DNA of 64,000 bases from a virus, in the IMG/VR virus record IMGVR_UViG_3300028581_000018, positions 1 to 64,000 of that record. The stretch is one strand, 5' to 3'. Shown here one piece after another: positions 32,264-61,600 of this stretch; positions within the stretch are counted from its first letter, which is position 1; every line of letters starts with the position of its first letter. The notes beneath the pieces are model-generated. The model had not been told where the DNA came from. It saw only the letters and a program-made list of their open reading frames with translations, and made no database searches. Made by a program: the position numbers and the translations under genes.

Positions 32264-35200
32264 TTAAACTCTAAAACACGTCCCGTCTAGATCTAAACCT
32301 ATTAGATCTTCGCTAACAAGAGTTTCACCAGCAATACCTTCTTGGTTTTCAATAATCAAATCCATTACTCCAAATTTACTTGACCCGGGCACCGGTAAGT
32401 TAAATCTCTTATAAAGTTCACCATATAAGTACTCTGCAATAACTTTAGATCCCGCAATTTGTGGAGTGTTCTGTTTTAATATGTCATTTATCAAAAGAGA
32501 CATATCCATTACAACAGCATTTCTAGGATTGCTCAAAATCTCTTCAATTTGAGATAACTGCTCATTTATACGTTTCTTAGCATCTTCAATGCTGGGAGTG
32601 GTACCTTGAACTACAGGACTAGGTTGAGTAGTGCGTTGTTGAGAGGTTAATTTTGCAGGTGCCGTGGGCATACCTGGTGTTAGGTCTGCAGCTCTTCTGA
32701 ATGTAAGAGTAATAGTATAATTTTCTATAACAGTACCATTAGGTAAAGTAATAGGTGGAAACTTCTGATCTCTTTTTACGCCTTTAGGTGTGTCATGAGC
32801 TAGTTCAAATCTACCTTTACCATCCATACCAAAAGTATAAATAGTTCCATTTTGAGTAGGTATTTCTTTTCTAGAATCTGATCTAAAAGATGGTGAACCA
32901 GGATTATTTTTATCCTCATAAATTCCAATTCCACTATTATTACCTATAGTATATACTACAACTGGATAATTTCTAGCACTCAAACTTTCTGTGGTATCTC
33001 TATGTGTTGCTATGTTCTGACCAGGTAAATAAATATTACCAATTACAGCATCATAGTTAGACATATCTATACCTAGAGTATTCTGAATCTCCTCAATAAT
33101 AGGTTGTAGATTAGATACAGGAGCTAGCGGATTACCATTTTGATCAACTGTATCATATACATAGTTATCTTTTGCCTTAGCATCTGTAGTAGCTAATCCA
33201 GCATTTGCATAGCTCTTATTATTAAGAGGTGCTTTAGCTGTACTTTTTCTAGTCCAACGTAGTCCATACATGAACATGTCATTAGCTGTACCAGAAGCAT
33301 TTTCTTTATAAGCTTGTGCTCTAATCTGTGGTTGGATAATATCTATAAAATCTTGAGTCTTATCAACAGATGGTTTAGTTTCTGCTACTACTACACCATA
33401 AGGTTCTGATACTACTTGCTGATTAGTACTTACAGGAGCTTGGGTGGGTTGAGTAGTAGTTCTTAATTGTTCAACTACTTCAGCTAATGCTGTAGGATGC
33501 ATACCTTGACCTCTAGCTGCAGACTTACCTGCATACAACAATGTAGCACCATCTAGTTTACCTTGATTAATTTGATTTAAAATCCATTCTCTTTGTTTTT
33601 CATTTACATCTTGAAGCAAAGTATCCCTTAATTCCATTTCCTTGCCTGTAGTAGCCACAGAATACTCCATATAATCACTTATAGGTTCATCAACTCCTAA
33701 TAACCAATCTTTATAAGCTCTTACTGCTTCACTAATACCGGCAACTTTTATAGTACCTCCATAACCAGCCTCACTAAAAGGATTACCAAAATGCTCATTA
33801 GGTTTAGCAGCTTCAGTGCGCATAGTATTAACCAACTTTGGATTATTTTTATCATAAACTTCCGCAGTTTTTAAATCACCTTTCCATTCTCTTGATGTAT
33901 CTATTGTAGGTTTAACACTAGTAGATGGTTGAGTAGTTTCTTTTACTTTAATTCTTGAAGTAGCACCTGTATGATAAACAGCAAACTTAGCACCTATTTC
34001 TTGCAAATAATCAATAAACTGAGAATCTACATTAGGCATGTCTCCTACTACAAACTCCATATTAAAATCATCATGATAAAACTTTATCATATCTTTAGTT
34101 TCTTGAAGTAAAGGTTTACCTTTTAAGGAACCATTTCTTGCAAGCATGACTGCTTTACCAGGGTCTGCCAGGTTTTTAGTACTTCTAGCAACTGTCTGTT
34201 CTTTTGTACCTTTTTGTTCTATTATACTTCCTGTTTTTAAAGAAGTTAAAGAAGAACTTGGATTAGTATTAGATACTTCAACAACAAAACTATCAGCAAC
34301 TGCTCTCATTGCTTTATCTTTACCATCACCTTCAGGAGTACCTTTACCAGTATTTTCAAAATCTCCTTTATATCCTTGGAATCCTCCAATACTAGTAGAT
34401 GGTTGAGTAGTGCGTTGTACACTAGAAATACCAGCATTAGCAAGCATCTCTTTAATCTTAGGTAAATTTTCTCTAGTATAATCTTTTCTTACTGTACCTT
34501 GTCTACCAAGATTTACATTTTCTGAAGGTATTACAAGTTTAATATTAGGACTAGCTTGTACTGTTTTAATAAGCAATGGTAAAATTTCTTCTATAGAACC
34601 TTCACCATGACCTAAACCCGCTAAAGGAAGTAAATAAGTTTTAGTTGGGTTTTCTTTAGAAACTTTAATCAAACTTCTTAAACTTTCTTTAAGTAACTCC
34701 ATGTTATTATTCATAGACATGTCATCACTCCATTTTTTCTTAACAGGTAACTGTACTACATCATCAGTAGCTTTAAAATTACCTTCACCTTGTTTAACCA
34801 AACCTTTAGCTTTAGCTGCTTGAGCAAGACCAGCACCATGTACACCACCTAAATTAGTAGTAATAACTGGGATACCAGGTAATGCAAAAATATCACCTTC
34901 TAATACTTTATCATTACTTACAGGAGCTTTGGTGGATTGAGTAGGTTGACCACCTTCTATAAAACCATCACCTACTTCTTTAAAACCAATACTAATTGGA
35001 AGATACTTGGCACGGGTAGTAGTATTTCTTAAATATGGAGACCTTGCTGCTTCAGTTTTATCTAGAGTGGTTGGATATACTACATATACCCCACCCGTTT
35101 GATCTTGCTTAATAACAAGGTCGTAGTAATCATATGGCTTAGAATAACCATATTGTTCGTTGGTAAAGAGCAGATTTCTAAAGTTTTTAGATGGTACATA

Positions 35201-38200
35201 ATTTGATCGTATTGTCTCCCCGCCAGGTAATCTATAACTAAATGCACCAGGAACAAGCTCGCTTCGGTCAATTTTTACAGGTGCCAAGCTGTATTGTCTA
35301 ACAGGAACTGTTGTTTTTCTAGTTTGACCAGAAATAAAACCTTCAGCAAAGTTCAATAATGATTGTTCTGAAAAATTAAAACCTGAAATAGCATCTTGAA
35401 TTGTAGCGTTTACTTCAGACAAATCAACTAGGTTTACTAAATTAGAAACATTTTTACTAAAACCATTTTGTAAAAATGCAATCTGGGGCAGCATAGTAAA
35501 TACATAGTTTATAAGCTTAATATTACTATCTGACAAGTTTGGCATTCTGTTTTTTACCGCCGTAAAATCTTTTAGTTGTTTTAACTGAGAATGGTATGAC
35601 GTTGCAGTAATCTCATCAATAGATTTTCCTATAAAGTCTAATATTACATATCCTGGATATTTTTTAGAATTAGTAAGAAAATAAGATAATACAGGAAACT
35701 GCTCTGTTAGTTCTTCTGAAAAATCTTTCTTTAAAATGTTTCTATAGAACACATTTGCAAATGATGATCCAGGATCTTGAAATAACTTATAGAGATTAAA
35801 GCTGTTAATATACGCCCTGTTTTCTTTTTGAACATCTGTACTATTTGGTTGAGTAAGTTCAACAATCGCGCGCTCTATCAAGAACCTAGTATACTCATGT
35901 ATTGTTGGGAACTCCTTGTTGCGAAAATCATTAGATAAGCTTTCATACTTTCTTTGTATCTCACTAGCACTTATATAGATTTTATCTTTAGTGAGGTAAA
36001 CACCTTTTTTTAAATAATCTACATACTGAACAGGTACTGTTTCTGATACACCAAATCCTTTGTAAGAATCAGATACACCAAGTCTAAAACCACGAACAGC
36101 ATTTTGGTATAATGCTAGAACAAGTTCATCTCTAAATGCAGCATCTAACAACTCCGTGCCGGTAGCTTTATTTGATGTTTGGCTATTTGATAATCTTCTA
36201 TAACCTTCTTGTAAAGAGTTAAACTCAGTGTTATCCGTTTCAATTTTACCACTAAGTTTATTTATAAAGTTATCAATGCGCGCATCAAACCTAAAAGGTA
36301 ATACTGATTTTGTTAAGGCTATAGAAAAGTCTCCAATAAAGAAGCTACCAATCATAGACTTTTCAGAGTTTTGAATAGCGTCAACTAAAGATCTATCAAT
36401 ACGACCATCGTAAAGCAGCTCATTTAATGATGCTTCACGTTCTCTGGTTGATAGATAAGAGTTTTCTCTTGTGGTGTCTACATTTGTTGCCCGGCTAAAC
36501 TTTGTAAATGCTTCAGATATATTTGATATCTCAATAAAATGTCTTAAAACTTTTTCTTGATACTCTTTATCTACTTTAGTAGGTATAAGTTGATCTTTAA
36601 GATCATTTAGTTGAAACTCTTCTTCATTATTTAATGAGTTTAATATGATTACATTCTTATTTTTATTGTTTAAAAGTATTTTATAAGCCTCACTTGCACC
36701 TCTTTCTTTCTTTAATGCTATGAACCTTCTAACAAGTGGTTGTGATACAAAGTAAACAGCATGTTCAACTGGTACTCCTGCCATTAACATATACATTAAT
36801 ACAGGAGTAATCTCTTTGTTACCTTGTATATAGAAGATCCATGGGTTTGCGCCAACGTCAACCCAACCATTAATCATCTGACTAAAAATATCAGATATTC
36901 TTACAAGCGGTGCTTTTTTATCTGTTCTATAACTATAAGTGTTATGTAAAGATATGTTACCCTCTTTTGTTACATTTTTTGGCAACAGCATCCTTATTGG
37001 TACAGTATAATCCTCCTTATTATTTCCACTACCTGTGGATATAACATATTCTTTTGGACTAACACCTTTCAAACTATTCAATAGAATATTATAGGTGGTC
37101 ATAATTGCACCAATACCTAAAGCATCCATGGCTGTCATGTATGCTTCATACTTAGACAAGTTGTAATCAGACTCAAATAATCTAGTAGGGCTTATTACAC
37201 CAGTAGATTCTCCAGAAAAATTTAATAATGGATCATAAGTCTGTGTGAGCCTTTTTAATTTATCAGCAAGATCATCAAAGATATCTGTGCTGTTAGGTGT
37301 TATTAATGACTCATAGTTTTGAGGACTTAATATAATTTCAAGAGATGTTTCTAGTAAATCTGTTTGTAGGGCGCCGACATAATTGTTCTCAACATCTAAT
37401 ACATAAATAATCTCTTTTAGATCTTCAATACTTTCTTCTATTTCTTTATTTAACTGATTTTTATCTTGAAAAGCATTTTTTAGTTCTTTATCTAAGTTAC
37501 CTGATTCATCTTTGAATCTATCAAATTCTTTTATTTGATCAAATAACCTTTTACTAAACTTTTCTAAGATACTCCTAGATGTGTCTTTAGTTAAAATCTT
37601 AGAGGATATGCGAAGAGCTTTAATTATATCCCCGTCAGTATAATCTGGTTTAGAAAGTACTTTTTGTAATGGACTTGGTAAAAATTGAAGCTGTCCGTTT
37701 TCACGATTATCATTAATTATTTTATTAATTTCTTCAATAATAAGCTTTCTACGAACTTTAGCATACTCGAGATTGCGTATGATATTAGAGATTGTCTCTT
37801 TGTTAACTTTCTTATCTGCTTTAAGATCTTTAATTAACATTTTAACTCTTTCTATAACATCTTTCTTATCAAGATTATTTTCTTTTTCAAGTCTTGATAG
37901 TTCATCTAAAAGATCTTGTCTTGTTTTATACTTCTTAGCAGATATTATCTTACCATTTTTATTTATTCTAGGAAATAGTGATGGTAGTTTATCAAAGTCA
38001 AAGTCACCACCAGATTTACCAACAATCTCTGAAGGCAACACAATAATGTTACCCGTGCCAATTGGCAAAAACTCATATACTTCTAATGCATCAATTGAAC
38101 CTTGACCCTGCACAGGTATCCTTACACCAAGAATACTAATTGCCTGGCGGTTGTCATCTTGATGTAACCATTTATCATTTTTGATTAACTGGTTTAGCTT

Positions 38201-41200
38201 AACCCGGCTAGCCTCAATATCAAGTACTCTCTTTTTTGTACCATCTTCTTCTTCAACGATATCATATACAGCAATTATATTACCATTAAGATCTTTACGC
38301 TGAAAAAGATTTATGAAGTCTCCATGTAAGGTAATAGCTACTTTAGCAGCTTGAATCTTTTTAGGATTGTATTTATAAAAGGGTAAAAACTCATTAGTAC
38401 CTAACCATTTCTTTCTTTCACTCTCATTAGCTTTTCTCCAAAATGATCCAGGTACTTGTACCAGTCCTTCACCATATGACTTTTGCTTTATAAGGCGCCG
38501 GCTGATTGTAGAAAACATGATTGCTTCTATAGTCTGGGCATTAGGTAAAGCTGATAAATCATTAGTTAGATTACCATTAGCATCTACAGAAATCTGTTTT
38601 ACTATATGCTCTGGTAAATTTTTCTTTCTCAGTTGAGTTTGTAAAAAAGCAGCAAGTCTTTCTACTGGGCCAGAGTATGTATTACCTTCTTTTACCCAAC
38701 CTATTTCATCTAAGAAATCTTTTTCAAGATTTTTAGTAACCTCATCTACAAGTCTTAAATAGTCTTTTTCAAGTTCTTTTTTGTCCTCTATAATTATACC
38801 ATTTAAGTACAAGTTCTCAACGATAAGCTTCCTCATCTGCGTAGCAAATGTTTGACCCGCTTTCCAAACATTAGTATTGCTGGTAACCTCTTTTAAGTAC
38901 GCTAAGTTTACAGGGTTAACGGTAAACTCTGTAGACATATTTATCTTATTACGATCACCATTCTCGTAAAGATCAGTAGGATTACCAAGATTAGAAATCT
39001 TTGAACCACTAGGATAAGTAATATAATCTATATTATTGATAATCATAAGATTATGAATATCATTTAATAAAGAATCTTCATGTACATTTGGTAGTAATGG
39101 TGATATACTAAACTTGTGTAATGCAGTAATAGGGGCATCTGTCTGAAGATTACCGTACATTTGTAACTTGTAAGTTGGAAAAAATACTTTAGCGTCATTA
39201 GCATCAAGCTTTTCACCATTTACAATCTTTTGGTATAGTGCTTCTTGTTCTGGTAACCAGTTGTTTTGTGCAATTTTAAGGTGTCGGTATGTATCAATAG
39301 TCATATAAGCATGACCATCACCAATTTTCATTTCTTTACCATAAGCTTTCTCAAGAGATTCAACAACTTCTTGTCTAACAGCTTTTTGACTTCTCTTTTC
39401 TCTCGCGGCTTTAAGTTTAACAACAGCTTCAATCATTTCATTAAGACTAACAGATCTTAAGCCTGTATCTTCCTGAATAATTGCTGTATTTAAAATACTA
39501 GTTGTCTCTTTTACAACCCCATCTGGTCTAAGTTCAGACATTACCTTTTCACTGTAAACTTTGGGGTATGCTTTATTAATAGCTTGTAGTACCCATTCAT
39601 CAGAAATAAAACCTGGGCCACCAGAACCAGCACCAGCATTATACTTTGTACCAGCTTCTTTTTTGTGATTGTATTGAGCCATATCACCATAAAAGAAATT
39701 GTTCATTTCAAAACGGTGAATAAAGTAGTTTACTGTATATGCTCTAACTAACGTTTTGTTTAACTCAGCATCCTTTACATTTAAATTAAACTTTCTTAGT
39801 TCTGTTTCATCTACAGGAACAAGTGGAGCTGATTGATCGTATCTATTCTGATTTTGCTTATTAACTTCTGTAAAGTAATATTTTAGATCTTCTTTAATAG
39901 CATCAATGTTTTTCCTTACAGATTCATCAGATGTTAAACCCTTCTCAATGTCTGCGTATAGAGCACCTTTTGTCTTAGGACTTAATATATCATCAAATGC
40001 TGTAAACTTTTCACCGGCGCCATCTTTATTCAACGCTTGGTTTTGTTTGTATGTCTCATTTGTCTTAAACAAAACAATTCTTTCATACTCCGCTTTGATA
40101 TATCTTTGAAGTAATCTAAGAGCATCATCTGGTAAAAGAGTATTCTCAAATAGTTTAGGTTGTAAGTATAATTCAGCAGAACCATTTTTATCTGTTATCA
40201 TAGGAACATAAACACTAGATTTACTTTCGTGAACTAGTGTTGGCATATATCCGTGTAGGATAAAAGAATAAAAGTCAGTTATGAACTTTTGATTTATTGT
40301 TAAATCTGTAGCTGAACTAGCATTTTCTATGTTATCATATTCATCAAGCTGTTGATAACCAACATGAAACATTAACTCTAACTTATTAAGATTGTTTCTG
40401 GATTCATCTTCGTAAAAAAGTTTTTCTCGTATGATACTGTACTTGAAAAATGGATTTAGTTCTTCAGAAAACTCTACGTTAAAGCCAGATGCATCTAATA
40501 AGTTAATGCTCTCATTTAGATACATGATCTTTCGAGTCATTGAGTTATGCAGAGAAATACTACTTACCAGATCACCATTAGCATTTAGAATAATGCTATC
40601 GTTAAAAAGAGGATTATACTTAATCTCTATCTGGGCAATTTTTCTAAGAATAGTTCTTTGATTACTTATTTTAGAATCAGTACTTCTCTCAATAAATGCT
40701 TGTAGAGGATTACTTTTTAGTTTTTTGTTATTAGGATTAATGCGAATATCATCGAGCATTTTATTAGCAGCAGATAATAACTCATTAAGAGTAATTCCAC
40801 TTTTTTGTGCTTGAATTACTTCTTTAGTAGTTTTTGTAAGCTGTACACCGAGCCTTTCAAAAAACTCAAAAGCTTCCTCAAAAGTGTTTACTCTGTTTGG
40901 TAAGTTGTTTGTGTTTAATACTGCTTCGTTATTAACGCGGGGTGCCACGTTAACAAAAATATTCTGCCATCTTCTATAAACATTTCCTACACTATTAGTA
41001 GCTTTACCAGAAGTGAAAGTTTGTTTAGTATCTGTTGTATTTTCATCAACCAGAACGTTACTTTTTGTATTAATTAATGCTTCTACTGATGCTTTATCAA
41101 AGGCTGAATGAAAATTTAATAGCACCTCTAACAAAATCCTTACTCTATTTCCTGTAATATCTTGAGCTAAAGCTCTATTGGTTGTATGCTCTTTAGGTAA

Positions 41201-44200
41201 CAGTTCATATATTACTTTTAATACAGGAAACGCATCACTAGACTTTTTTATAGCATCAAGCATCTCAGTATAAGTCTTAACGCCAACAACTGTTTTTTGT
41301 AATGCATTAAGCGTTGGGCCAAATTCTTGGTTTATAGGAAACCCTAGTTTGTTCTTTATATAAACAAACTTTTCCTCACCTATACTAAAATCATAAGATT
41401 TGCTGTTAATCTCTTTTTGTGTAGCTTTTTTAAAACTAGGAATTATTCTAAGAATTGTTGTAAGCTCTTTTGGTAAATAGTCTTTCATAGGTCGACTATT
41501 TGCTCTCTTATCTCCTCCTTGTTGTAATAACTCAGAATTGTTTGATGTATCTGCGTCAACGTCAATATCAATATCTTCTTCAGCAACTACTAAATTAGTA
41601 ATAGCTGCAGATGAAGTTTGAGCATATGCTGCTAAAATACCATTTGTCTTTTTGTTATTCGCAAATGATTCAATGTCTCCAAAGTTCTCAATAACTATCT
41701 CTAGCAGTCTCTTTTGGTCTAGTAAGTTGTTTGGTTTTTCTTCAAGACTATCAAGCTCCTCATTAATATCAGCAAGTTTATTCTTAAAGGTATTTAGAAT
41801 ACCTTCAAAAATTGTTGTACGTCCTTTTGATGAATACAAGAAAGCTAAGTTGTTAGAGCGAGTTCCGTCTAGTTCTGTGTTAATTAAAGCTTTAGCTACA
41901 AGCCCATCAATAGATTGTCTAATAAGATCAAACTCTTCATCTTCAATGTTCAAAGGTGTTTTATCATCTTTTACACTCTTAGCACGATTCAAGACATCAA
42001 ACATTGAGTTATTAATGTTTGGTTGAAGATTTAGAAGCTTACCAAAGTAAAGTTTCTCAAATGCTTCAGCCACTGCCGGTACACTCATTGCATCTACATA
42101 GACAGCATTTCTATTAGTGCCCCCAAACAAAGCCTTTAAAAGATTCCAGATCTTTCTAAAGATTGTATTTTTTGCAGGAGAACCCTTCTCAGGATTTTGG
42201 AATCGAGCATAATCTCTAAACTGCTCGGCTAAATATTCTTCTATTTGAAAGAAAGAAGCATCGCTAAAACTTACTACCTCACCATTAACAGTTGTAAATA
42301 CACCGGGTTTTTTACGAACCTCTTTATATAGTTTTACTTTTTCTTCAGTGGTTAAGTATAGCTGAGTAAAACCGTGCCATGCTTCGTGGTAAATATCTAC
42401 AGAACTTGATCCTTTATAAAGGGTGATGCCTGATCTTGAAAATGTGGCCCAAGCATTACTATTAACAATACTAAGTAATCTGTTTAAAGGTATTACTTTT
42501 GAAAGGGGACTATTCGCCCACCATTTTTCAGCATCACGAATTTGTTCTTCTGTGACTGCGTTTTCTAGATTTGTTGCCCTAAACAAATCGTCAAAACTTA
42601 AATTAAAAAGATCAGGGTTACCAGGATTTAAATTCTCATTGTCTTGCTCTTCTACAGTTTTTTCTTCTGCAGGTGAAGTTTCTTGTTCAACCTCTGGAGT
42701 TTTTTGTAGAGTATCTAAGTCTGGTAATGTATATCTGAAAAGAGGATTTAATGCAACAATTTGACCTTCTGCATTTGGTTTACTAGCACGTACTTTAATA
42801 TTGTTGTATAACCAGCTATAATAGTTAGAATTGTCCTTAACTTTCAGTTCTCCATTTTCAACTTTAATATTTGTATATATACCATTTGTAAAGTTTGTAA
42901 GATTAATATTTACAAGAATGTTTTGTTTAAACACCTCCTCAAGTGCAGACTTAAGATTTTCATCTCCTATCTTGTATTGAGTTTCCTTACCATCGGCATC
43001 TTTTATAGTAACTGTTTCTGCAGATTTATTATATATAACTTGAGGACGATCTGTAGCCTTAACAGTAGTAAGAAGATTATTTCCAATCTTTACAAAAAAC
43101 GTTTCAAGATACTTATATCTAGTATCAGAGCTTATATTAATATTGTCAACTAGTATATTTTGTTCAGAAAGAAGCATTATTATAGCTTCTGTTAAACCAG
43201 GAACATCTTTAAAATAAGGCTTAACTGCCTCAACATGTTCATCTGATAAGTTTCTAACAAGATTAGTGATCTTTAAAAACTTATCAAAAATACCCTTTCG
43301 ACGAATCCAATCTTCTGAATCTATTTGTTCATCACTTGCATCTATACGTATATCTCTTAGAAGACCTGGTGTATTATCATAGTTAGAACTACCTATTGAT
43401 GTAATAGGCATTGTTACTTGAGTATTGTTTTCTGTTACATACTTTTTAGTTTCTTCTAGTCGCTTAATAAGTTCTAATTGAGCAGCAATTGCTTCTCGGC
43501 TTTTTAGTGTAGCAATTTTATCTTTATTTCTAGTAAAGTTATATATCACACCCCCAGTGCCATCTTCTGTAATGTTTCCTTCATTATCAAACAAATAAGG
43601 TACACCCTTAGCATCTGTTACAATTAAAATTGTAAGGTTTTCTCTCCTATTGTAAAGATTTGATCTTTGAAATCTATTCATTGACGCAAAGTCTCCACTA
43701 CCCAAATATTCTTTATCTAGCTCTATATCTAAATTTTGGTGAGCCATCATTGTATAGTACAATGGCTTACCATTATACATCAAAGGTTGACCAGGAACCG
43801 TTTCTTCATTATTTTTCTGTTGTTTAGAAACTTTCTCTTTGAATTTATAAATTCTATTTTTTACAGGATCTTCTTCATCACGAAGAGTTTGAATTGGTAC
43901 AGTTACTTTTTCTTGTTCAATTTGAAAAGCTTGTTCTCGGGTATCTGTGTTTGGACTACTAGAATAAGTAAAAACCGGTTCTGAAGTATTAAGTTCTATT
44001 TTACGTTTGTTATCTTCTGTTGCTTCGTATTGTCCTAGTACAATTCTTTGTGAATCTATAATCTCTAGAATAGTTTGTAATGAACCAGTTATTGTAGTAA
44101 TTAACTTTTTAACCTCTTCAATATCTTTGAATGTTTCAATTGAAATACTCAGTTTATCTGAGTAATTAATTCTTGCAAGATATCTTTTAACTTCAGGTAC

Positions 44201-44413
44201 AAAATATGATAAACCTGATATTAACTCAGGTACCATCATGGCATATGCTAATGCTGTATTCTCATCATTATTTTTACGAACTAATGAATATATTTTTTGA
44301 GCAAACGGTACCACAGAAAAATTTTTCTGATCTGCAGTAATCATTTTCTGAATGTCTTTTAATAGAAGAGCACTTACTCGTTGTATTTGCTCTTTTGGTA
44401 TAGCACAGTTCAT
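32264..44413 (-). CDS. virion-associated DNA-dependent RNA polymerase (crAss-like gp66 type) with C-terminal accessory domains
   Basis: 4049 aa; GDGHAY, SGSK, RIPVQGQGS, catalytic GGDFDFD (37991-38005); N-terminal zincin YHEAWH. Confidence 0.88.
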   Translation of the reverse strand: MNCAIPKEQIQRVSALLLKDIQKMITADQKNFSVVPFAQKIYSLVRKNNDENTALAYAMMVPELISGLSYFVPEVKRYLARINYSDKLSISIETFKDIEEVKKLITTITGSLQTILEIIDSQRIVLGQYEATEDNKRKIELNTSEPVFTYSSSPNTDTREQAFQIEQEKVTVPIQTLRDEEDPVKNRIYKFKEKVSKQQKNNEETVPGQPLMYNGKPLYYTMMAHQNLDIELDKEYLGSGDFASMNRFQRSNLYNRRENLTILIVTDAKGVPYLFDNEGNITEDGTGGVIYNFTRNKDKIATLKSREAIAAQLELIKRLEETKKYVTENNTQVTMPITSIGSSNYDNTPGLLRDIRIDASDEQIDSEDWIRRKGIFDKFLKITNLVRNLSDEHVEAVKPYFKDVPGLTEAIIMLLSEQNILVDNINISSDTRYKYLETFFVKIGNNLLTTVKATDRPQVIYNKSAETVTIKDADGKETQYKIGDENLKSALEEVFKQNILVNINLTNFTNGIYTNIKVENGELKVKDNSNYYSWLYNNIKVRASKPNAEGQIVALNPLFRYTLPDLDTLQKTPEVEQETSPAEEKTVEEQDNENLNPGNPDLFNLSFDDLFRATNLENAVTEEQIRDAEKWWANSPLSKVIPLNRLLSIVNSNAWATFSRSGITLYKGSSSVDIYHEAWHGFTQLYLTTEEKVKLYKEVRKKPGVFTTVNGEVVSFSDASFFQIEEYLAEQFRDYARFQNPEKGSPAKNTIFRKIWNLLKALFGGTNRNAVYVDAMSVPAVAEAFEKLYFGKLLNLQPNINNSMFDVLNRAKSVKDDKTPLNIEDEEFDLIRQSIDGLVAKALINTELDGTRSNNLAFLYSSKGRTTIFEGILNTFKNKLADINEELDSLEEKPNNLLDQKRLLEIVIENFGDIESFANNKKTNGILAAYAQTSSAAITNLVVAEEDIDIDVDADTSNNSELLQQGGDKRANSRPMKDYLPKELTTILRIIPSFKKATQKEINSKSYDFSIGEEKFVYIKNKLGFPINQEFGPTLNALQKTVVGVKTYTEMLDAIKKSSDAFPVLKVIYELLPKEHTTNRALAQDITGNRVRILLEVLLNFHSAFDKASVEALINTKSNVLVDENTTDTKQTFTSGKATNSVGNVYRRWQNIFVNVAPRVNNEAVLNTNNLPNRVNTFEEAFEFFERLGVQLTKTTKEVIQAQKSGITLNELLSAANKMLDDIRINPNNKKLKSNPLQAFIERSTDSKISNQRTILRKIAQIEIKYNPLFNDSIILNANGDLVSSISLHNSMTRKIMYLNESINLLDASGFNVEFSEELNPFFKYSIIREKLFYEDESRNNLNKLELMFHVGYQQLDEYDNIENASSATDLTINQKFITDFYSFILHGYMPTLVHESKSSVYVPMITDKNGSAELYLQPKLFENTLLPDDALRLLQRYIKAEYERIVLFKTNETYKQNQALNKDGAGEKFTAFDDILSPKTKGALYADIEKGLTSDESVRKNIDAIKEDLKYYFTEVNKQNQNRYDQSAPLVPVDETELRKFNLNVKDAELNKTLVRAYTVNYFIHRFEMNNFFYGDMAQYNHKKEAGTKYNAGAGSGGPGFISDEWVLQAINKAYPKVYSEKVMSELRPDGVVKETTSILNTAIIQEDTGLRSVSLNEMIEAVVKLKAAREKRSQKAVRQEVVESLEKAYGKEMKIGDGHAYMTIDTYRHLKIAQNNWLPEQEALYQKIVNGEKLDANDAKVFFPTYKLQMYGNLQTDAPITALHKFSISPLLPNVHEDSLLNDIHNLMIINNIDYITYPSGSKISNLGNPTDLYENGDRNKINMSTEFTVNPVNLAYLKEVTSNTNVWKAGQTFATQMRKLIVENLYLNGIIIEDKKELEKDYLRLVDEVTKNLEKDFLDEIGWVKEGNTYSGPVERLAAFLQTQLRKKNLPEHIVKQISVDANGNLTNDLSALPNAQTIEAIMFSTISRRLIKQKSYGEGLVQVPGSFWRKANESERKKWLGTNEFLPFYKYNPKKIQAAKVAITLHGDFINLFQRKDLNGNIIAVYDIVEEEDGTKKRVLDIEASRVKLNQLIKNDKWLHQDDNRQAISILGVRIPVQGQGSIDALEVYEFLPIGTGNIIVLPSEIVGKSGGDFDFDKLPSLFPRINKNGKIISAKKYKTRQDLLDELSRLEKENNLDKKDVIERVKMLIKDLKADKKVNKETISNIIRNLEYAKVRRKLIIEEINKIINDNRENGQLQFLPSPLQKVLSKPDYTDGDIIKALRISSKILTKDTSRSILEKFSKRLFDQIKEFDRFKDESGNLDKELKNAFQDKNQLNKEIEESIEDLKEIIYVLDVENNYVGALQTDLLETSLEIILSPQNYESLITPNSTDIFDDLADKLKRLTQTYDPLLNFSGESTGVISPTRLFESDYNLSKYEAYMTAMDALGIGAIMTTYNILLNSLKGVSPKEYVISTGSGNNKEDYTVPIRMLLPKNVTKEGNISLHNTYSYRTDKKAPLVRISDIFSQMINGWVDVGANPWIFYIQGNKEITPVLMYMLMAGVPVEHAVYFVSQPLVRRFIALKKERGASEAYKILLNNKNKNVIILNSLNNEEEFQLNDLKDQLIPTKVDKEYQEKVLRHFIEISNISEAFTKFSRATNVDTTRENSYLSTREREASLNELLYDGRIDRSLVDAIQNSEKSMIGSFFIGDFSIALTKSVLPFRFDARIDNFINKLSGKIETDNTEFNSLQEGYRRLSNSQTSNKATGTELLDAAFRDELVLALYQNAVRGFRLGVSDSYKGFGVSETVPVQYVDYLKKGVYLTKDKIYISASEIQRKYESLSNDFRNKEFPTIHEYTRFLIERAIVELTQPNSTDVQKENRAYINSFNLYKLFQDPGSSFANVFYRNILKKDFSEELTEQFPVLSYFLTNSKKYPGYVILDFIGKSIDEITATSYHSQLKQLKDFTAVKNRMPNLSDSNIKLINYVFTMLPQIAFLQNGFSKNVSNLVNLVDLSEVNATIQDAISGFNFSEQSLLNFAEGFISGQTRKTTVPVRQYSLAPVKIDRSELVPGAFSYRLPGGETIRSNYVPSKNFRNLLFTNEQYGYSKPYDYYDLVIKQDQTGGVYVVYPTTLDKTEAARSPYLRNTTTRAKYLPISIGFKEVGDGFIEGGQPTQSTKAPVSNDKVLEGDIFALPGIPVITTNLGGVHGAGLAQAAKAKGLVKQGEGNFKATDDVVQLPVKKKWSDDMSMNNNMELLKESLRSLIKVSKENPTKTYLLPLAGLGHGEGSIEEILPLLIKTVQASPNIKLVIPSENVNLGRQGTVRKDYTRENLPKIKEMLANAGISSVQRTTQPSTSIGGFQGYKGDFENTGKGTPEGDGKDKAMRAVADSFVVEVSNTNPSSSLTSLKTGSIIEQKGTKEQTVARSTKNLADPGKAVMLARNGSLKGKPLLQETKDMIKFYHDDFNMEFVVGDMPNVDSQFIDYLQEIGAKFAVYHTGATSRIKVKETTQPSTSVKPTIDTSREWKGDLKTAEVYDKNNPKLVNTMRTEAAKPNEHFGNPFSEAGYGGTIKVAGISEAVRAYKDWLLGVDEPISDYMEYSVATTGKEMELRDTLLQDVNEKQREWILNQINQGKLDGATLLYAGKSAARGQGMHPTALAEVVEQLRTTTQPTQAPVSTNQQVVSEPYGVVVAETKPSVDKTQDFIDIIQPQIRAQAYKENASGTANDMFMYGLRWTRKSTAKAPLNNKSYANAGLATTDAKAKDNYVYDTVDQNGNPLAPVSNLQPIIEEIQNTLGIDMSNYDAVIGNIYLPGQNIATHRDTTESLSARNYPVVVYTIGNNSGIGIYEDKNNPGSPSFRSDSRKEIPTQNGTIYTFGMDGKGRFELAHDTPKGVKRDQKFPPITLPNGTVIENYTITLTFRRAADLTPGMPTAPAKLTSQQRTTQPSPVVQGTTPSIEDAKKRINEQLSQIEEILSNPRNAVVMDMSLLINDILKQNTPQIAGSKVIAEYLYGELYKRFNLPVPGSSKFGVMDLIIENQEGIAGETLVSEDLIGLDLDGTCFRV
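32622..34944 (-). repeat. five dispersed TTQP(S/T)-linker DNA repeats (core ttgagtag) between RNAP accessory domains
   Basis: 33917-33937 = 34391-34411 (21 bp identical); 32622-32639 = 34401-34418 (18 bp identical); 33428-33456 vs 34916-34944 (27/29). Confidence 0.85.
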
Positions 44414-44417
44414 ATGT

Positions 44418-47400
44418 TTAACACTTTGAATTATTACCTATATCGTCTTCTAGACTAGAATCATCTTGATCTAAAAAGGGATTTTCTTCACCAAATGTAG
44501 TTCTAGGTTCACTTTTAATAGCATCTAAGTTTTCATTGGTTAATTCCAGGTTTATCCGTTCTTCTTGAGATAGTACAACAGGTTCATCCTCAACACTTAA
44601 AAGTAGGTCAAATGAATTTTGAAAATCTTTCACACTCATTTTTTCTTTTACTGAAGGATTATTTACCAAAGATATCACTATTTCTCCTCTTGCCTCATTA
44701 TAAGATACAACTTTATAAGCAGTATCTACACTTTGCACATCACTTTTCCTAAAGAAATATGTGTTTTTTGATATGCTTTCTAGATCTGGTAGTAGGGCGA
44801 GCTCCGCGCGCTTTGCTTCAATAGCATCACTGAGCTCTTGATTAAGTGTAGAAGTAGGAAACTGGAATCTGAAATTAAAAGCTTCTTTTACAACACCTGA
44901 AAGCTGGCTTAAATTTGTAACAGCACCAAGCATTCCTAGTATGTTTTGACGTTGTTCTGATGCTCGATTAAAGATTGTAGCATCTGACACGCGCATCCTA
45001 CCAACAACACCATTAGTTTCTGCGTCAACTAGATTAACTACATCTTCATATATTACATCAAAAGCTTCACCCGGTACAACAGATTCTTTTTGAAGACTTA
45101 GCTTTATGATGTCTCCCTGGTTTAAAAGAATGTTTGCGTCTAAGAATACCCCAACCCGTAACGTTTTACCATTTACTTTTAGAATTAAACTTCTAGAACT
45201 TCCATATTCAAAGTATTCGCCGTAGAGTTCTTGTCCAGAATTTAAAAGCTCTCTTACAAGTTTTGCTTTAGCGTCAACACGGTCACTAGGTCTTGAGTTA
45301 TCAATCTTAGTTAGTACAGCTTCTTGTTCTGCTGTAAGACTAACTGTGTTCTCATTAGTAAATGTTGTAGTTTCTCCACCGGTATCTTCACTTTCTAAAA
45401 CAGCTATTTCTTCATCAAATTTCTTTTTTAACTCATTTAATATATCTACTCTTCCTTGATCTTTAGCTGTTTGCATTGCTTTGAAAAATGCTTCTGCTAC
45501 AATTTGACGATCCTCAGATTGTGTATTTTTATCTGGATGTACGAGTTTAGCATATTCTTTAAACAATCGTGCAGCTTCTGCTTTATTTGTTTTTACTACC
45601 TCACCCTTAAGAGTTTTATTGATAGCATCAAACATTTGAGATCCTAAGTTATCAGGTATAAACTCACCTCTAACAACTTTACCTGGTTGATTTTCACTAA
45701 AATCAAATAATGATTCGGATCCAAATACTTTTGATATAGTATCATTAATTCTCTTTATTATATCCCCTTTATCAGAAACAGTAGTACCTTCTAAAGCAGC
45801 TAGTTCTGCATCATATTTAGCATTGATTTCTTTATTTCTTTTTTGAACTTCTGGCATCCATACATTGTCAGGTAAAGAAGCTCTATTATTTTTAGCATAT
45901 TCAGCGACCTGTTCTCTTTCTTCTTGTCTTCTTCTTTCTATAGCAGTAACCTCCTTAAACAATGCTGGATATCTAGTAACTACACTTCCTGCTACTACAG
46001 GCTCTTTAGGATTCTCTAACAAGAATTTTGCAAGTCTTGTTAGCTCTTTAAATTCAGCAGGAGTTATCTTTTGTTTTTCATCTTCTAACGCATCTGCTCC
46101 TTCACCCTCTCCAGTTTCTTCTCCTGATGGCTCTTCTTCTTCTGCTCCTGTTTCTTCTTCTGTTACCTCTTTTAGTCTATTACCTAGTGCTTCATCTACA
46201 ATCTCTTCTAATGTCATTTCTTTCTTGGTTGTATCACTAGGAACATCGCTTGTGAATACTACATGTTTTTCATTGACGTTGATGGTTATAAAGGGCGCAT
46301 CCGCTGTGAGCTTTTGAGTACCTACTTTTGCTGGAGTTTTAATAGACGATATTTTTGCGTCGCCATCATACTCTACCTCAAGAGGTAATATCCCCAGGTT
46401 TATTTTGTCAAGACCAGTAATTTCCTGTAAGATCTTTTTGTAAATAATCTGTTGTAGAGCATTTTTTATATATGTTCTATATGCATCCGCTCCTGTAGAA
46501 TATTTTGACCATTTAGATTTCTTACCGGTTTTTACATCTACAATCCACCACTCTGAGTTTTCGTCAATGAATAGTAAATCCATTTGCCCAGCAACCTTTG
46601 TATTATCAGAATAGATTACATCTGTATTAGAGGCTATTTCTCCAACCGTTTGTTTAAAAGGCTCTAGTATCTTTTGTAGTTGTTTAGCCGCAGCTTCTGA
46701 TAATAAAGACGTTTCTGGAATACTTGTAGCACCAATATCTGCTACAAAATCTCTTACCGCCTCATCAACCTCGTTACCAACATCTCTTGATGCATCATAT
46801 AAACTATTCATTATCTCTTCAGATAATGTATCTAAATAGTTAGTTTGTACCTTAGCCGTTATTGTACTTGATGCTAATACCCCAAGAAAATCAGGCAATC
46901 TTTGAATTGTACGATCTAGTATTTTACCAGCTTTTTCAGAACTAACTTTACCACCAGTTATACTAACAAGCTCTCTTTGCATATGCGCGCGCACATCTGT
47001 AGCACGATCACCTTTTAACGCATTAGCTAATTGTGTAAGGTATAGTGTTACCTCAGCATTTGGCGCTAAACCAAAAGGCTCTTGTCTAAAATACTTTTCT
47101 AGTATTTTTTCAACTATTAAACTCACCCTAGCATACTCTTCTTCTTTAATGATATATGCTTCAGATGATTTTACTGGAGTACCATCAGGATTTTTCTCTA
47201 CACTAGCCATTCTTTGTCTAATAGAATCTAGAACTTTTTCAATTTCTTGTTCTATTAAAAAGATGTCTTTGTTTGTATAGAGAGCATACTGTTTTATAAA
47301 AGCATCCAGCGCGTTTATATCATTTGCTAAAGCTGTGTATTCACGAGTTCTAGTTGTAAGTGTAGCTAGTTTAGATTTTAAAGATTTTAGCAAACTCCTC

Positions 47401-48155
47401 AAATACAATAAAGACATATCTGTAGATATCTCTTCGCCTGTTGTACCAAGTTTTATATTTGCTGGTTTTGTTTTAGCAGGGGTTCCTGTAGATGGCACCG
47501 TGGCAAGTGCTGTGTTGTATTGGCTTATAATACTTACCGCTGTGCTTGTAGATAAAAACTTACTTATATCAGTGTATAACGTTGGATTAGCTCTTTGAGC
47601 ATTTGCAAATGCTGTATCTAATTTAGTTTTTAATTCTCTTAGTGCTTGATAAGTAGCATCAGTATCAGGTAATAACTCAAAATCTTCATAAGTAATATCA
47701 CCAATTGATATTTCTTCATTAGGCACCAGCTTAGTTGTCTTTTCTTCTTCCTCTTCTTCTTCCGCTGGAGTAGGGGTAATAGGTGTTGCACTTGTAGATG
47801 TAGTGCTTAATGTAGTACCTGGTATTTTAAATCCAATATACAAGAACACTTTTTCTAATCCTTCTACAGGACTAGTAAACTTATTGATCATATCTACTAA
47901 CGCCGTTTCACGTATTGGCGTAGCATCAAGCACTGACTTAAATACAGGTATACTTCTACCTTTACCAATAATAGCAAATGCTGTTTGTACAAATAATGCT
48001 GCCCTACTAACACTCCCCGTGCTAGTAGCAACAAGATTGAACAGATCATTCATGTAAACGTCTATGTCAAACGTAGCAGGATCCGCATTAATATGCGCAT
48101 ATACATCATTTGCTAAATCAGAAATCTGCTCTTTAGTTAATGCACAAGTTATCAT
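44418..48155 (-). CDS. large virion protein with PD-(D/E)XK nuclease domain and J-domain-like module
   Basis: VAGQMDLLFID...IVDVKTG...LQQIIY; YAKLVHPDKN; IERRRQEE...INAKYDAELAALE. Confidence 0.7.
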   Translation of the reverse strand: MITCALTKEQISDLANDVYAHINADPATFDIDVYMNDLFNLVATSTGSVSRAALFVQTAFAIIGKGRSIPVFKSVLDATPIRETALVDMINKFTSPVEGLEKVFLYIGFKIPGTTLSTTSTSATPITPTPAEEEEEEEKTTKLVPNEEISIGDITYEDFELLPDTDATYQALRELKTKLDTAFANAQRANPTLYTDISKFLSTSTAVSIISQYNTALATVPSTGTPAKTKPANIKLGTTGEEISTDMSLLYLRSLLKSLKSKLATLTTRTREYTALANDINALDAFIKQYALYTNKDIFLIEQEIEKVLDSIRQRMASVEKNPDGTPVKSSEAYIIKEEEYARVSLIVEKILEKYFRQEPFGLAPNAEVTLYLTQLANALKGDRATDVRAHMQRELVSITGGKVSSEKAGKILDRTIQRLPDFLGVLASSTITAKVQTNYLDTLSEEIMNSLYDASRDVGNEVDEAVRDFVADIGATSIPETSLLSEAAAKQLQKILEPFKQTVGEIASNTDVIYSDNTKVAGQMDLLFIDENSEWWIVDVKTGKKSKWSKYSTGADAYRTYIKNALQQIIYKKILQEITGLDKINLGILPLEVEYDGDAKISSIKTPAKVGTQKLTADAPFITINVNEKHVVFTSDVPSDTTKKEMTLEEIVDEALGNRLKEVTEEETGAEEEEPSGEETGEGEGADALEDEKQKITPAEFKELTRLAKFLLENPKEPVVAGSVVTRYPALFKEVTAIERRRQEEREQVAEYAKNNRASLPDNVWMPEVQKRNKEINAKYDAELAALEGTTVSDKGDIIKRINDTISKVFGSESLFDFSENQPGKVVRGEFIPDNLGSQMFDAINKTLKGEVVKTNKAEAARLFKEYAKLVHPDKNTQSEDRQIVAEAFFKAMQTAKDQGRVDILNELKKKFDEEIAVLESEDTGGETTTFTNENTVSLTAEQEAVLTKIDNSRPSDRVDAKAKLVRELLNSGQELYGEYFEYGSSRSLILKVNGKTLRVGVFLDANILLNQGDIIKLSLQKESVVPGEAFDVIYEDVVNLVDAETNGVVGRMRVSDATIFNRASEQRQNILGMLGAVTNLSQLSGVVKEAFNFRFQFPTSTLNQELSDAIEAKRAELALLPDLESISKNTYFFRKSDVQSVDTAYKVVSYNEARGEIVISLVNNPSVKEKMSVKDFQNSFDLLLSVEDEPVVLSQEERINLELTNENLDAIKSEPRTTFGEENPFLDQDDSSLEDDIGNNSKC

Positions 48156-54545: not shown

Positions 54546-55181
54546 TTAGATATATTTAAATGTTGTTTTATTTATTCTTTTTCCTAATAGGATTCTTGAA
54601 AGAGAACCTTTGGTCATTCCAATTAACTCACAAACTTCAGCTAATGAGCTATATATAACGCCTGTTGTAATATCTATAATTTTTTTTCCTCTTTTTTCCC
54701 TATGTAGCTTTGTATAGTTTATACCTTCTCTTGATCTTTTTAAAAGTTCTTTATGTTGACAAGAAAGTGTCCTTTGTTTTAAAGCTTCAATACAGGCTTG
54801 AGATGGTTTTTTGCCTTTATTTGCTTGTCTTAATTTTTCTATTGTTGCTTCTGAATGTATAGAGCAACCATTTGGATTTGTAGGTTTTATATTATAACCA
54901 GTTGATCTGTCCAAACAATTTAATTCATTAACCCAATAGTGTTCTCTAGCATGTAAATTACTGATGTCACATTTTTCAATCATCTCGAAAATAAAATTTT
55001 CTTCACCGTACTTAGTCCATGCTCTTTGCAAATAACTATTATTATGTTTGTCTTTTCTTAAATCATAGAGATGTCCATTTATTCTAGTTCTTACATTGGA
55101 AGCACAACCAATATATATTTTACCGTTAGTTATACTAGTAATTTTATATATTCCAGGAGTTGATTGTATATAAGTAGCCAT
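54546..55181 (-). CDS. free-standing GIY-YIG homing endonuclease
   Basis: PGIYKI...KIYIGCA...RINGH...LQRAW; NUMOD3-like HSEAT and C-terminal HTH; no intron core around it. Confidence 0.9.
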   Translation of the reverse strand: MATYIQSTPGIYKITSITNGKIYIGCASNVRTRINGHLYDLRKDKHNNSYLQRAWTKYGEENFIFEMIEKCDISNLHAREHYWVNELNCLDRSTGYNIKPTNPNGCSIHSEATIEKLRQANKGKKPSQACIEALKQRTLSCQHKELLKRSREGINYTKLHREKRGKKIIDITTGVIYSSLAEVCELIGMTKGSLSRILLGKRINKTTFKYI

Positions 55182-58659: not shown

Positions 58660-61600
58660 TTATAAGTATTCAATTGTACCACCCATGCGTTGAATATAAG
58701 CAACTTCTTCAGGTGTCAAATCCATTTCATAAGTACCACCCATTTTCATCATACCCCCAAATTTAGCAAATCCACTTGACACACCGGGACTAAACTGTTG
58801 ACGTTGACCCATAAATGATTGATATGGTCTTGACATATCATATGTGTTTATGTTAATGCCCTCATCTGGGTTAGCATAAGTTTGTGCAAAGTAGTTATAA
58901 GGATCTGTTTCACGGTTTAACATTTCAGCTTGAGCAAGCTCCTGATCTGCACGATTTTTCAGATTAGTAATTAAATTGGCACCAGCATATCCTATGTCTC
59001 CATACTGTGTAACACTTAAAGGATCTTTTCTAAAATTAAGACCAAATGTTTTCATTGAAGCATCTGGATCAACTTCTTGAGCACGTTCTTTAGCTGTCTT
59101 AGTAGGTAACTGCATTGGTTGTGGGCGCGCCCCAACTAAAGCACTATTATCAAATGGCTCCATAGCAAATTCAGTGTCACCAAATGTTTTAGCAGACTGA
59201 CCAGGGTTAGAAATTGAACGTGGTGCTAAAGTTACTTCACTTGCATCAGGGCCTTGGAATCTAGGTAATCCACCATTTTTATAAAGATATAGTTGTCCCC
59301 CGTTTTGTTTATTTTTAAGAGGTGGTGCAACAGGAAAGTTTTCAATAAACTTTTTATCTTCTGGATTTCGAGAATCAATATAAACTGCAGTATCTCCTTC
59401 TGTACCAAATCTTTCAGTTAAACACTCTAAAGAATATGGTTCAAAGTTTGTACATCCATAGCTACCAAATCTATTATCAGGTTGACTAAACCTTTTAAGT
59501 CTTGATTGATATTCTACTGGATCATGATGTGGTTTTGCACCTATACCCTGTGAAGGATCCCACGTATAACCAGGTTTTGCTCCTGCACCATATACAACAT
59601 GCATTGCTAAAGGAGTTGTAGCAATAGGCGCATCTTCTCCAAAAGCAGCAATAGGTTTTTGATAATATCCAGGATAACCATAAATACTCTTATCGTATTT
59701 CATGTTATATGTTCCTGTTGGAGTAGATCTTGCCGCAGGATTGTCTTTTAAATATGATACTGGATAAGGATTGGCATTAGGATCTGTTTCATAATTTTTA
59801 CCAGCTAATCCCGTTAATACGGGAAACTTTTGATCAATTTTACCAGCTCTTACAAAATTGATAGTTCCTGTTGCCTTATCAACAATAACTCCAGATTCAA
59901 GATTGCTTCTTAAATCTTTATTTTCATAATAACCATCACCTTGAAATGGACTATTACCAGTATTTTTAAAATCAATACCATTTCTTCTTTGTAACAAAGG
60001 TGGTATTTTAACTTTTACATTGTTAACCTCTTTAGCATTTTGTTTTTTTGCTTGGTTAACTACTTTAGGAGTACTTGGCTTTTGATTATTAGATTGATCT
60101 ATTTGAGAACTTCTAGATGAAACATTAGTAGTTTTTGGTTGTTGAACCGTTTTAAAATCTTCAGTATTTTTTTTACGATTTATATCATTAACCAGTTGAA
60201 TATTTCCAGAAAGAAGTTCTTTTTTTAATGTAGAATTTTGTTCATAAGTACCAGTATAAGGTTCATCAAAATAATCTTGGAATATTTTTTTTCTAGATTC
60301 AAAAGATGGATCATACCCTTTACTCTTTACTATATCATAAAGTGTTGATCCACCAGTTTGATATGAATCTTCTTGATAAAAAGATTGTTTATTTCTTGGA
60401 TTAGGTTGACTAACTTTAAAACTCTCTTCTCTCTTCAATGCATCTACTTCACTTTGGTTAGTAAGATTAATTGGGCCAGCACCACTTAAATCAATTGGTG
60501 TTAGTGATTGTCTCATGTAATTTATAGCATCACTATTAGGTGCAAAATTGTTGTCAGCTTCCTGACCATATGCACCAGTATAAGAAGGATCTCTTGGTAT
60601 AGATTGGTTAATACTTTGAGTAGGTAAACCAGTAATACTGGTAGGAGGAATTTGTTGTATACCTGGCGTATACTGTGATGGTGGAGTTACTGAATAATCT
60701 CTTATATTAGTTTGTTGTGGAGGTGATATATTGTTTGGATCTAATAGAGGTGGTACACCAATTCTAGCGGGTTTATTAGAAGATGTAGTGCCAGATGTAG
60801 TTGATGTTTCTTGTGGAAAATTAAGTGGAGGTAACGATCTACTAAACTGCATTGACAAGGTTCTAGGATTATTAATATTTCCTAAAAAACCTTTTTTAGC
60901 TTCTACGTTAGATAAATAAGATCTGTCTAATGGTATAGTGCCATATACTTTTTGAGCATCTGCAAAATCTCTAGCGCTTTTTCTTGTAAGACTATACCCA
61001 CGCGGTTGAAACCAATCATTAGAAATTGGCGCCGCGCCAAACATGCTTAACAAGTTACTCATATTTACACTCCTACCTATTCCTGGATATTGTGGAGTAG
61101 CACCCCTATTTTGAGCAGCTAGTAGCTGATTAAACTGTTCAGGAGTAAGTGATATGTTACCCGTATTAGACGTATTACCTGTTTGACTATTCTGAGTGCC
61201 TTGAAAAGTTGGTAAACCACCATATCTCATCATAGGGGGTTGGCTAAAGTAATCCATACTTTGTTCAACTGCTTCGTCAGCCATTGTATTAGCTACATTG
61301 CGCTGTATGCCAGCGACGAATTTTTTGAGACGCTCACCGCCATATGAAGAATCACCAGTAGGTAAACCATCTGTGTTTACCATTTCCTGTGCCATACCGC
61401 GCGCAGCTTTTTTAAGCTGAGATGTAAATTTATTACGCCCACGCTTTGAACCACCATACATATAATCTTCCTCACCATAATCTGCAGTGGCTGCCTCAAC
61501 AGCAGCGTTATACTGTTCTTCTTCAGCTTCTAAACCTGCAAGCTCTTCTGGAGTTGGTGTATTGTAAGATTTTTGATATTGAGCTGGTTGTGCAGATTCA

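Follow-up and report, generated by a model that had tools for sequence, protein, structure and literature searches.

To our knowledge, AlkB domains inside viral polymerase polyproteins have previously been known only from plant RNA viruses. In the Flexiviridae and other such viruses the domain lies between poorly conserved stretches of the replicase polyprotein, has been spread by recombination, and is proposed to protect viral nucleic acid (PMC2553587, PMC544882). Among phages, sporadically occurring AlkB-like 2-oxoglutarate (2OG)/Fe(II) dioxygenases (2OGFeDO) have been described as stand-alone genes of jumbo phages (PMC7824862), and giant injected proteins with variable enzymatic modules are known as polyvalent proteins (Iyer et al. 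2017, PMC5512222). Protein gp66 of Cellulophaga phage phi14:2, annotated as the catalytic RNA polymerase (RNAP) subunit from virion tandem mass spectrometry (MS/MS), is described in two reports as a DNA-dependent RNAP which undergoes translocation into the host, where it transcribes the early genes (bioRxiv 10.1101/2020.03.07.982082; PMC7886860). Here we describe a gp66 orthologue of 4049 amino acids (aa) which carries an AlkB-family domain near its C-terminus. It is encoded in the first 64,000 nucleotides (the window) of a 109,449-base pair virus record from IMG/VR (IMGVR_UViG_3300028581_000018), estimated to be 91% complete, and identical sequence was recovered in many lake-water metagenomes.

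Identification of the carrier protein

The carrier, its catalytic motif and the AlkB-like segment are located as follows.

32264..44413, minus strand: P0001, a 4049-aa open reading frame (ORF) in which a crAss-like RNAP body is followed by a variable array of cassettes towards the C-terminus and finally by a conserved tail of ~120 aa
37991..38005, minus strand: catalytic motif DFDFD of the polymerase (aa 2137-2141), aligned to DFDID of gp66
32681..33430, minus strand: AlkB-family double-stranded beta-helix domain with N-terminal substrate lid (aa 3662-3911; model residues 29-278)

The AlkB-like segment falls within the final tenth of this minus-strand frame, and the ORF list of the window contains no plus-strand ORF of at least 80 aa overlapping it. 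Domain residues are numbered below as in the model; adding 3633 gives the residue number in the whole protein.

An earlier sequence-only reading of the window had placed the module on a virion RNAP, and comparison with gp66 bears this out. Residues 1700-2148 and 2337-2564 of the carrier are colinear with residues 963-1372 and 1464-1657 of the phi14:2 protein (BLASTP E 2e-13 and 5e-7, respectively), and DFDFD of the one aligns with DFDID of the other. The phi14:2 report names DFDxD as a motif of crAss-like virion RNAPs (bioRxiv 10.1101/2020.03.07.982082). Using tblastn, the RNAP core matched 86 phage records, almost all of them crAss-like and mostly from the gut. Searched by phmmer at full length (4049 aa), the carrier had no meaningful match among PDB sequences. 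Judged by its sequence, the carrier is a gp66 orthologue and hence a predicted crAss-like virion RNAP. From this homology we infer that it is packaged in the virion and enters the host with the DNA.

The AlkB-family domain

The sequence-only reading had proposed an AlkB-like module with the NxY, HxD, distal H and terminal R of that family. The strings that it quoted are all present in the frame, and the residues align with those of AlkB. The 2OG-FeII_Oxy_2 match expected from that reading was recovered in part: searched with the domain alone, Pfam PF13532 gave an E-value of 4.3e-7 with a score (30.8 bits; 30.6 bits in the genome search) just under the 31.2-bit cut-off, which two close relatives exceed (32.5 and 32.6 bits). 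A profile built from 27 relatives matched AlkB-family entries only in the PDB, with rice ALKBH1 first (E 7.6e-7), followed by ABH2 and, weakly, E. coli AlkB. Aligned directly to E. coli AlkB with hhalign, the domain scored a probability of 93.8% (E 1.7e-7), or 94.5% over residues 1-216. PHROGs contains no family for it.

The domain, of ~250 residues, is confidently folded in the model, and the double-stranded beta-helix fold on which the assignment depends is there: both the core and an AlkB-type N-terminal substrate lid are present. In structure it comes closest to E. coli AlkB, rice ALKBH1, ABH2 and ABH3, all of which act on nucleic acid. Its sequence, fold and catalytic residues make this segment a genuine dioxygenase domain of the AlkB family, predicted to be active and to depend on Fe(II) and a 2-oxoacid.

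Active-site residues

Residue conservation was assessed in 265 domain hits from two database searches, of which 242-248 sequences cover the key columns.

32996..33037, minus strand: NIY...HRD; N160/Y162 correspond to AlkB N120/Y122 and H171/D173 to the iron ligands H131/D133, conserved in 242/242
32951..32953, minus strand: Y188, aligned with AlkB V146 and in perfect co-variation with T267
32795..32797, minus strand: H240, corresponding to AlkB H187, the third iron ligand, conserved in 248/248
32795-32812, minus strand: RFELAH, an in-frame string from the translation
32693..32719, minus strand: YTITLTFRR, with T267 at the position of AlkB R204 and R273 corresponding to AlkB R210, the latter conserved in 245/245
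W87: AlkB W69, at least 99% conserved; hhalign pairs the two with low confidence
Y118 and Y120: AlkB Y76 and Y78, at least 99% conserved
T175: position of AlkB D135
E176: AlkB E136, with no exception among the relatives covering the column

Pairwise identity in the family falls to 22%, and only 27 of the 246 columns are at least 99% conserved; these include the catalytic set and the equivalents of W69, Y76 and Y78. R210 is the arginine that marks AlkB proteins within the superfamily, and the contacts of AlkB with the base comprise stacking by W69 and H131 together with Y76, Y78, D135 and E136 (PMC8508711).

These residues bear upon the kind of substrate. The fold alone cannot assign one, and polyvalent proteins often modify host proteins (PMC5512222), which might favour a hydroxylase or demethylase directed at a host or phage protein. 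All of the top structural matches named above are, however, enzymes of nucleic acids, and at least 99% of the relatives keep the residues equivalent to the base-stacking and base-bonding W69, Y76, Y78 and E136 (PMC8508711). Both observations argue against a protein substrate, which we regard as extremely improbable. Protein-directed activity is reported for some eukaryotic AlkB homologues.

The first arginine of the RxxxxxR signature had not been evident to the sequence-only reading, and rightly so, since T267 occupies the position of AlkB R204. In AlkB this arginine forms a salt bridge to the C5 carboxylate of 2OG (PMC7467159). Among the relatives, position 267 is threonine in 173/246, the window domain included (T-type), and arginine in the remaining 73/246 (R-type). 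T267 is paired with Y188 in 165/165 cases, and R267 with N189 plus one of I/L/V/A/M at 188 in 73/73, so that the two types differ by a coordinated change at positions 188/189/234. As both AlkB and rice ALKBH1 have arginine at this position, the T-type is the derived state. Y188 lies on a core strand (model strand 185-191). Because of the usual topology of this fold, we infer that this strand pairs with the one bearing residue 267; the tyrosine hydroxyl may then assume part of the role of the arginine and permit 2OG binding. The T-type thus appears to be a previously undescribed AlkB subfamily with an altered 2OG site, and a large, strongly conserved subfamily lacking the canonical 2OG-binding arginine is of interest to 2OG oxygenase enzymology.

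The same substitution could be taken to mean that the module has diverged catalytically and no longer uses 2OG, serving instead as a binder of nucleic acid or bases, or as an oxidase with another co-substrate. The frequency of threonine at the R204 equivalent (173/246) and the accompanying change at 188/189/234 are what such divergence might leave behind. Yet inside the T-type the iron ligands and the equivalents of N120/Y122 and R210 are 100% conserved, and a mere binder would not need them. In addition, the ratio of nonsynonymous to synonymous substitution rates (dN/dS) is 0.13, and the T-type fills the same architectural slots as the canonical R-type. A module that has abandoned 2OG is therefore very doubtful. 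The idea that the domain is a decayed relic was rejected, its invariant catalytic residues and the dN/dS of 0.13 being incompatible with decay.

Cassette architecture

The linker TTQP[ST] recurs at aa 3336, 3494, 3654 and 3929 and divides the last 900 residues of the carrier into blocks. The DNA repeats that specify it are related to one another and lie at 34910-34944, 34388-34420, 33914-33946, 33422-33456 and 32597-32631. The AlkB-like block is the fourth, flanked by the last two repeats, and the conserved tail follows it.

33422..33456, strand unspecified: linker repeat at the N-terminal border of the AlkB cassette, encoding ...TTQPTQAP... (repeat families D1 and D2)
32597..32631, strand unspecified: linker repeat at the C-terminal border of the AlkB cassette, encoding ...TTQPSP... 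(family D1, a 60% identical copy)
32267..32596, minus strand: C-terminal tail of ~110-120 aa ending in ...LDLDGTCFRV, with counterparts at L079:16262-16600 and L080:15848-16186 (55-59% identity)

This tail is conserved in relatives whose cassette arrays differ entirely; the array is thus an insertion that separates the body from the tail, both of them conserved.

The three cassettes upstream of AlkB (33458-35026, minus strand) have no significant Pfam match. For module 1 the sole Pfam hit is DUF7831 (E 0.12), and the ESM Atlas provides a weak lead (score 0.76) in which one cluster has Macro in 18% of its members. Modules 2 and 3 have nothing in Pfam, and an ESM Atlas search with module 3 likewise gave nothing. 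Module 3 adjoins AlkB in several relatives, sometimes in reversed order (L009, L010, L019).

Mobility and selection

Proteins that share just ~21-46% identity in their RNAP bodies reach 72-93% in the AlkB block. Where synonymous sites are saturated, amino acid identity is 52-64% in the cassette versus 19-38% in the RNAP body. Because this saturation affects cassette and body alike, the difference against most relatives stems from purifying selection that is much stronger for the cassette.

One relative, L003, departs from this. Its 90.7% nucleotide identity to the window is restricted to positions 32651-33442, with limits at the linker repeats, and four-fold degenerate sites differ by 0.18 in the cassette versus 0.55-0.61 in the body (Fisher p 6e-12). 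The corresponding synonymous divergence (dS) is 0.34 in the cassette versus 1.5 in the body, and it is from this pair that the cassette dN/dS of 0.13 derives. The pattern marks a recent exchange of the cassette alone, between phages with RNAP bodies ~30% identical, and the ratio indicates that the cassette is under purifying selection.

The closest relatives, L079 and L080, are 54% identical to the carrier over aa 1-3158 of the body and share its C-terminal tail of ~120 aa at 55-56% identity. They have no AlkB; between body and tail they carry other cassettes, which are seen again in other AlkB-bearing giants. The domain is thus a discrete, mobile accessory cassette bounded by linker repeats.

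Distribution of the family

The family is small, with 209 representatives at E 1e-3 among 1.84 billion. Most of the 150 matches listed lie in proteins of more than 2000 residues or in short proteins, which are possibly fragments. The cassette is usually near the C-terminus, at a median of 386 aa from the end. Stand-alone frames of 265-304 aa were found in two phage contigs of 370-390 kilobases (kb), one T-type (L018) and one R-type (L035). The module is absent from 50,697 deposited phage records as searched with the region by blastn and tblastn. A single-sequence scan of IMG/VR for relatives of the RNAP core yielded five loci, too few to gauge how frequent the cassette is. IMG automatic annotation labels a few of the relatives 'AlkB'; other NCBI or IMG names are uninformative or automatic.

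Relatives of the carrier contain NADAR, ART-PolyVal, DUF7831 and RecD-like helicase modules, and for this reason the giants belong with the polyvalent injected proteins of Iyer et al. (PMC5512222). The RecD-like helicase (PF13604/PF13245) is found in 31 of the 120 listed AlkB-bearing giants (P0019-P0029 and others), and it accounts for the annotation of some deposited crAss-like RNAP genes (phage cr118_1, H1/H2) as 'DNA helicase/exonuclease V'. Fusion of helicase and RNAP seems common in this lineage.

How close is the tie between AlkB and the polymerase? The sequence-only reading had supposed that the two act together, the dioxygenase clearing alkyl lesions in cis from the template or the nascent RNA during early transcription. 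In its strict form this would mean removal of blocking lesions from the single-stranded template, within the transcription bubble or ahead of it, or from nascent RNA. The association itself is strong: among 162 AlkB-bearing giants, phmmer links at least 95 to the RNAP core, the motif D[FYW]DxD is present in 150, and in ~70 of 75 IMG/VR loci the module lies within a frame of more than 2200 aa or in one cut by the end of the locus. AlkB moreover prefers single-stranded nucleic-acid substrates (PMC8508711, PMC2553587), and plant RNA viruses have AlkB inside the replicase polyprotein (PMC2553587). Counting against coupled action are the closest relatives, which have the same RNAP body without the cassette, and the varying position and neighbours of the cassette, which in 19 giant proteins lies in the N-terminal 1500 aa. 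Stand-alone genes in the jumbo-phage contigs, the movement of the cassette between phages as a unit, and phi14:2 gp66, which works without it (bioRxiv 10.1101/2020.03.07.982082), point the same way. These comparative data weaken cis action as a requirement, and we consider such action unlikely.

Proposed function

We suggest instead, with about as much confidence as doubt, that the domain is a pre-made, injected AlkB-type nucleic-acid dealkylase tethered to the virion RNAP for delivery and proximity. The polymerase would be packed in the capsid and enter the cell with the DNA, and the enzyme would be there before any phage gene expression. Using host Fe(II), O2 and 2-oxoglutarate, it would strip small alkyl (methyl-type) adducts oxidatively from the nucleobases of single-stranded nucleic acid, the likeliest targets being the phage genome as it arrives and/or the first transcripts made from it. 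The tether would provide delivery and proximity and would not be an obligatory part of transcription; we read it in this manner because the cassette is optional, movable and sometimes stand-alone. The need for oxygen fits both the lake-water habitat and the absence of the module among deposited records, of which the crAss-like ones are mostly from the (anoxic) gut, and suggests an oxygen-linked distribution, in a comparison that is confounded by sampling.

Several points weigh against an injected dealkylase. The intact packaging and continued attachment of the C-terminal array are assumed, and the nucleobase substrate is assigned by analogy. The score of the domain is 0.4 bits under the curated gathering cut-off of PF13532. 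With T267 in place of the R204-type arginine, normal use of 2OG is not assured. The classical AlkB substrates may not apply either, since T175 replaces D135, and it is this residue that biases AlkB towards lesions with a positive charge, 1mA and 3mC among them (PMC8508711). Finally, the cassette is dispensable in close relatives, and its benefit must therefore be conditional.

Perhaps the enzyme serves as a counter-defence or host-takeover effector, erasing methyl or other alkyl marks on phage DNA which would be exploited by a methyl-dependent nuclease or a base-modifying defence, or else the protective methylation of host DNA. Such a role, the chief alternative here, has been suggested for the AlkB-like genes of jumbo phages (PMC7824862). 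There is, on the other hand, no phage-side writer, the three main DNA methyltransferase families of Pfam (PF01555, PF02086 and PF00145) not being found in the 109-kb record, and one or a few injected molecules would need to act at many sites. Nor did searches give an identity for the other three modules of the array. We also know of no defence system that installs an AlkB-reversible mark, which counts further against this explanation, and we judge it unlikely. A bolder proposal would combine such a role with the chemistry of the T-type. The T-type would make up a mechanistic subclass new to AlkB enzymes, with another mode of 2OG binding or another 2-oxoacid, and the injected enzyme would erase a specific nucleobase modification installed or recognised by host defence, as opposed to random damage, as a pre-packaged counter-defence arm. 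This is speculative and, on balance, distinctly improbable.

Neighbouring genes

Other minus-strand genes of note in the window are as follows.

44418-48155, minus strand: 1245-aa protein directly upstream of the RNAP, whose aa 454-583 form a nuclease domain of the PD-(D/E)XK type (Pfam score of 23.2 bits, over the cut-off; match to PHROG 298 'exonuclease' at E 3e-10)
54546-55181, minus strand: 211-aa GIY-YIG homing-endonuclease ORF between two giant genes in the block for virion proteins (PHROG 314, E 1e-33; Pfam GIY-YIG and NUMOD3)
58660-61971, minus strand: large protein with a sub-threshold Pfam match to YkuD L,D-transpeptidase (E 1e-3)
61999-63468, minus strand: large protein with a sub-threshold Pfam match to Phage_lysozyme2 (E 6e-3)

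The giant proteins, which are probably ejected, may thus include a nuclease as well, and the YkuD-like and Phage_lysozyme2-like products may be cell-wall-acting ejection proteins. The GIY-YIG ORF looks like a selfish insertion.

Comparison with known systems

Full-text literature searches revealed no paper in which crAss-like phages, or a virion RNAP, are connected with AlkB or 2OG oxygenases. The enzyme family is known; what is new is the carrier, the proposed mode of delivery, and the subfamily with an altered 2OG site.

E. coli AlkB (PDB 3KHC, 2FD8) shares ~20% identity with the window domain. Its R204, N206 and D135 are all threonine here, and insertions amount to ~50 residues. AlkB belongs to the Ada regulon and does its repair as a free enzyme, whereas the window domain forms part of a 4049-aa predicted virion protein. 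Rice ALKBH1 (PDB 5XEG/5XOI) is eukaryotic and stand-alone, and has an arginine aligned at the R204-equivalent position.

The carrier and phi14:2 gp66 share a homologous RNAP body and the DFDxD motif, and both are encoded within a block of giant genes. At 2180 aa, however, gp66 is without an AlkB-like module, as found by tblastn of a phage collection containing phi14:2, and the window protein is ~1900 residues longer, including the cassette array. The polyvalent proteins resemble it in being giant injected proteins with variable enzymatic modules, and ART-PolyVal and NADAR occur in relatives of the window protein, but the paper describing them makes no mention of an AlkB/2OG dioxygenase module or of a crAss-type RNAP carrier (PMC5512222). 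The jumbo-phage 2OGFeDO are separate genes whose products are made during infection (PMC7824862), while the enzyme described here is part of a virion protein and would be present at entry; L018 and L035 are stand-alone members of its own subfamily. The domain offers a tractable way to study the role played at entry by variable modules of injected giant phage proteins, and standard assays exist.

In concept, the nearest precedent is the AlkB domain of the plant RNA virus replicases. There the carrier is an RNA virus polyprotein; here it is an injected, DNA-dependent, two-barrel virion RNAP of a double-stranded DNA tailed phage, in which AlkB, with predicted activity, is one of several interchangeable cassettes. 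The same solution is now seen in double-stranded DNA phages of the crAss lineage, drawn from an exchanged pool of cassettes and carried on the first enzyme to read the genome.

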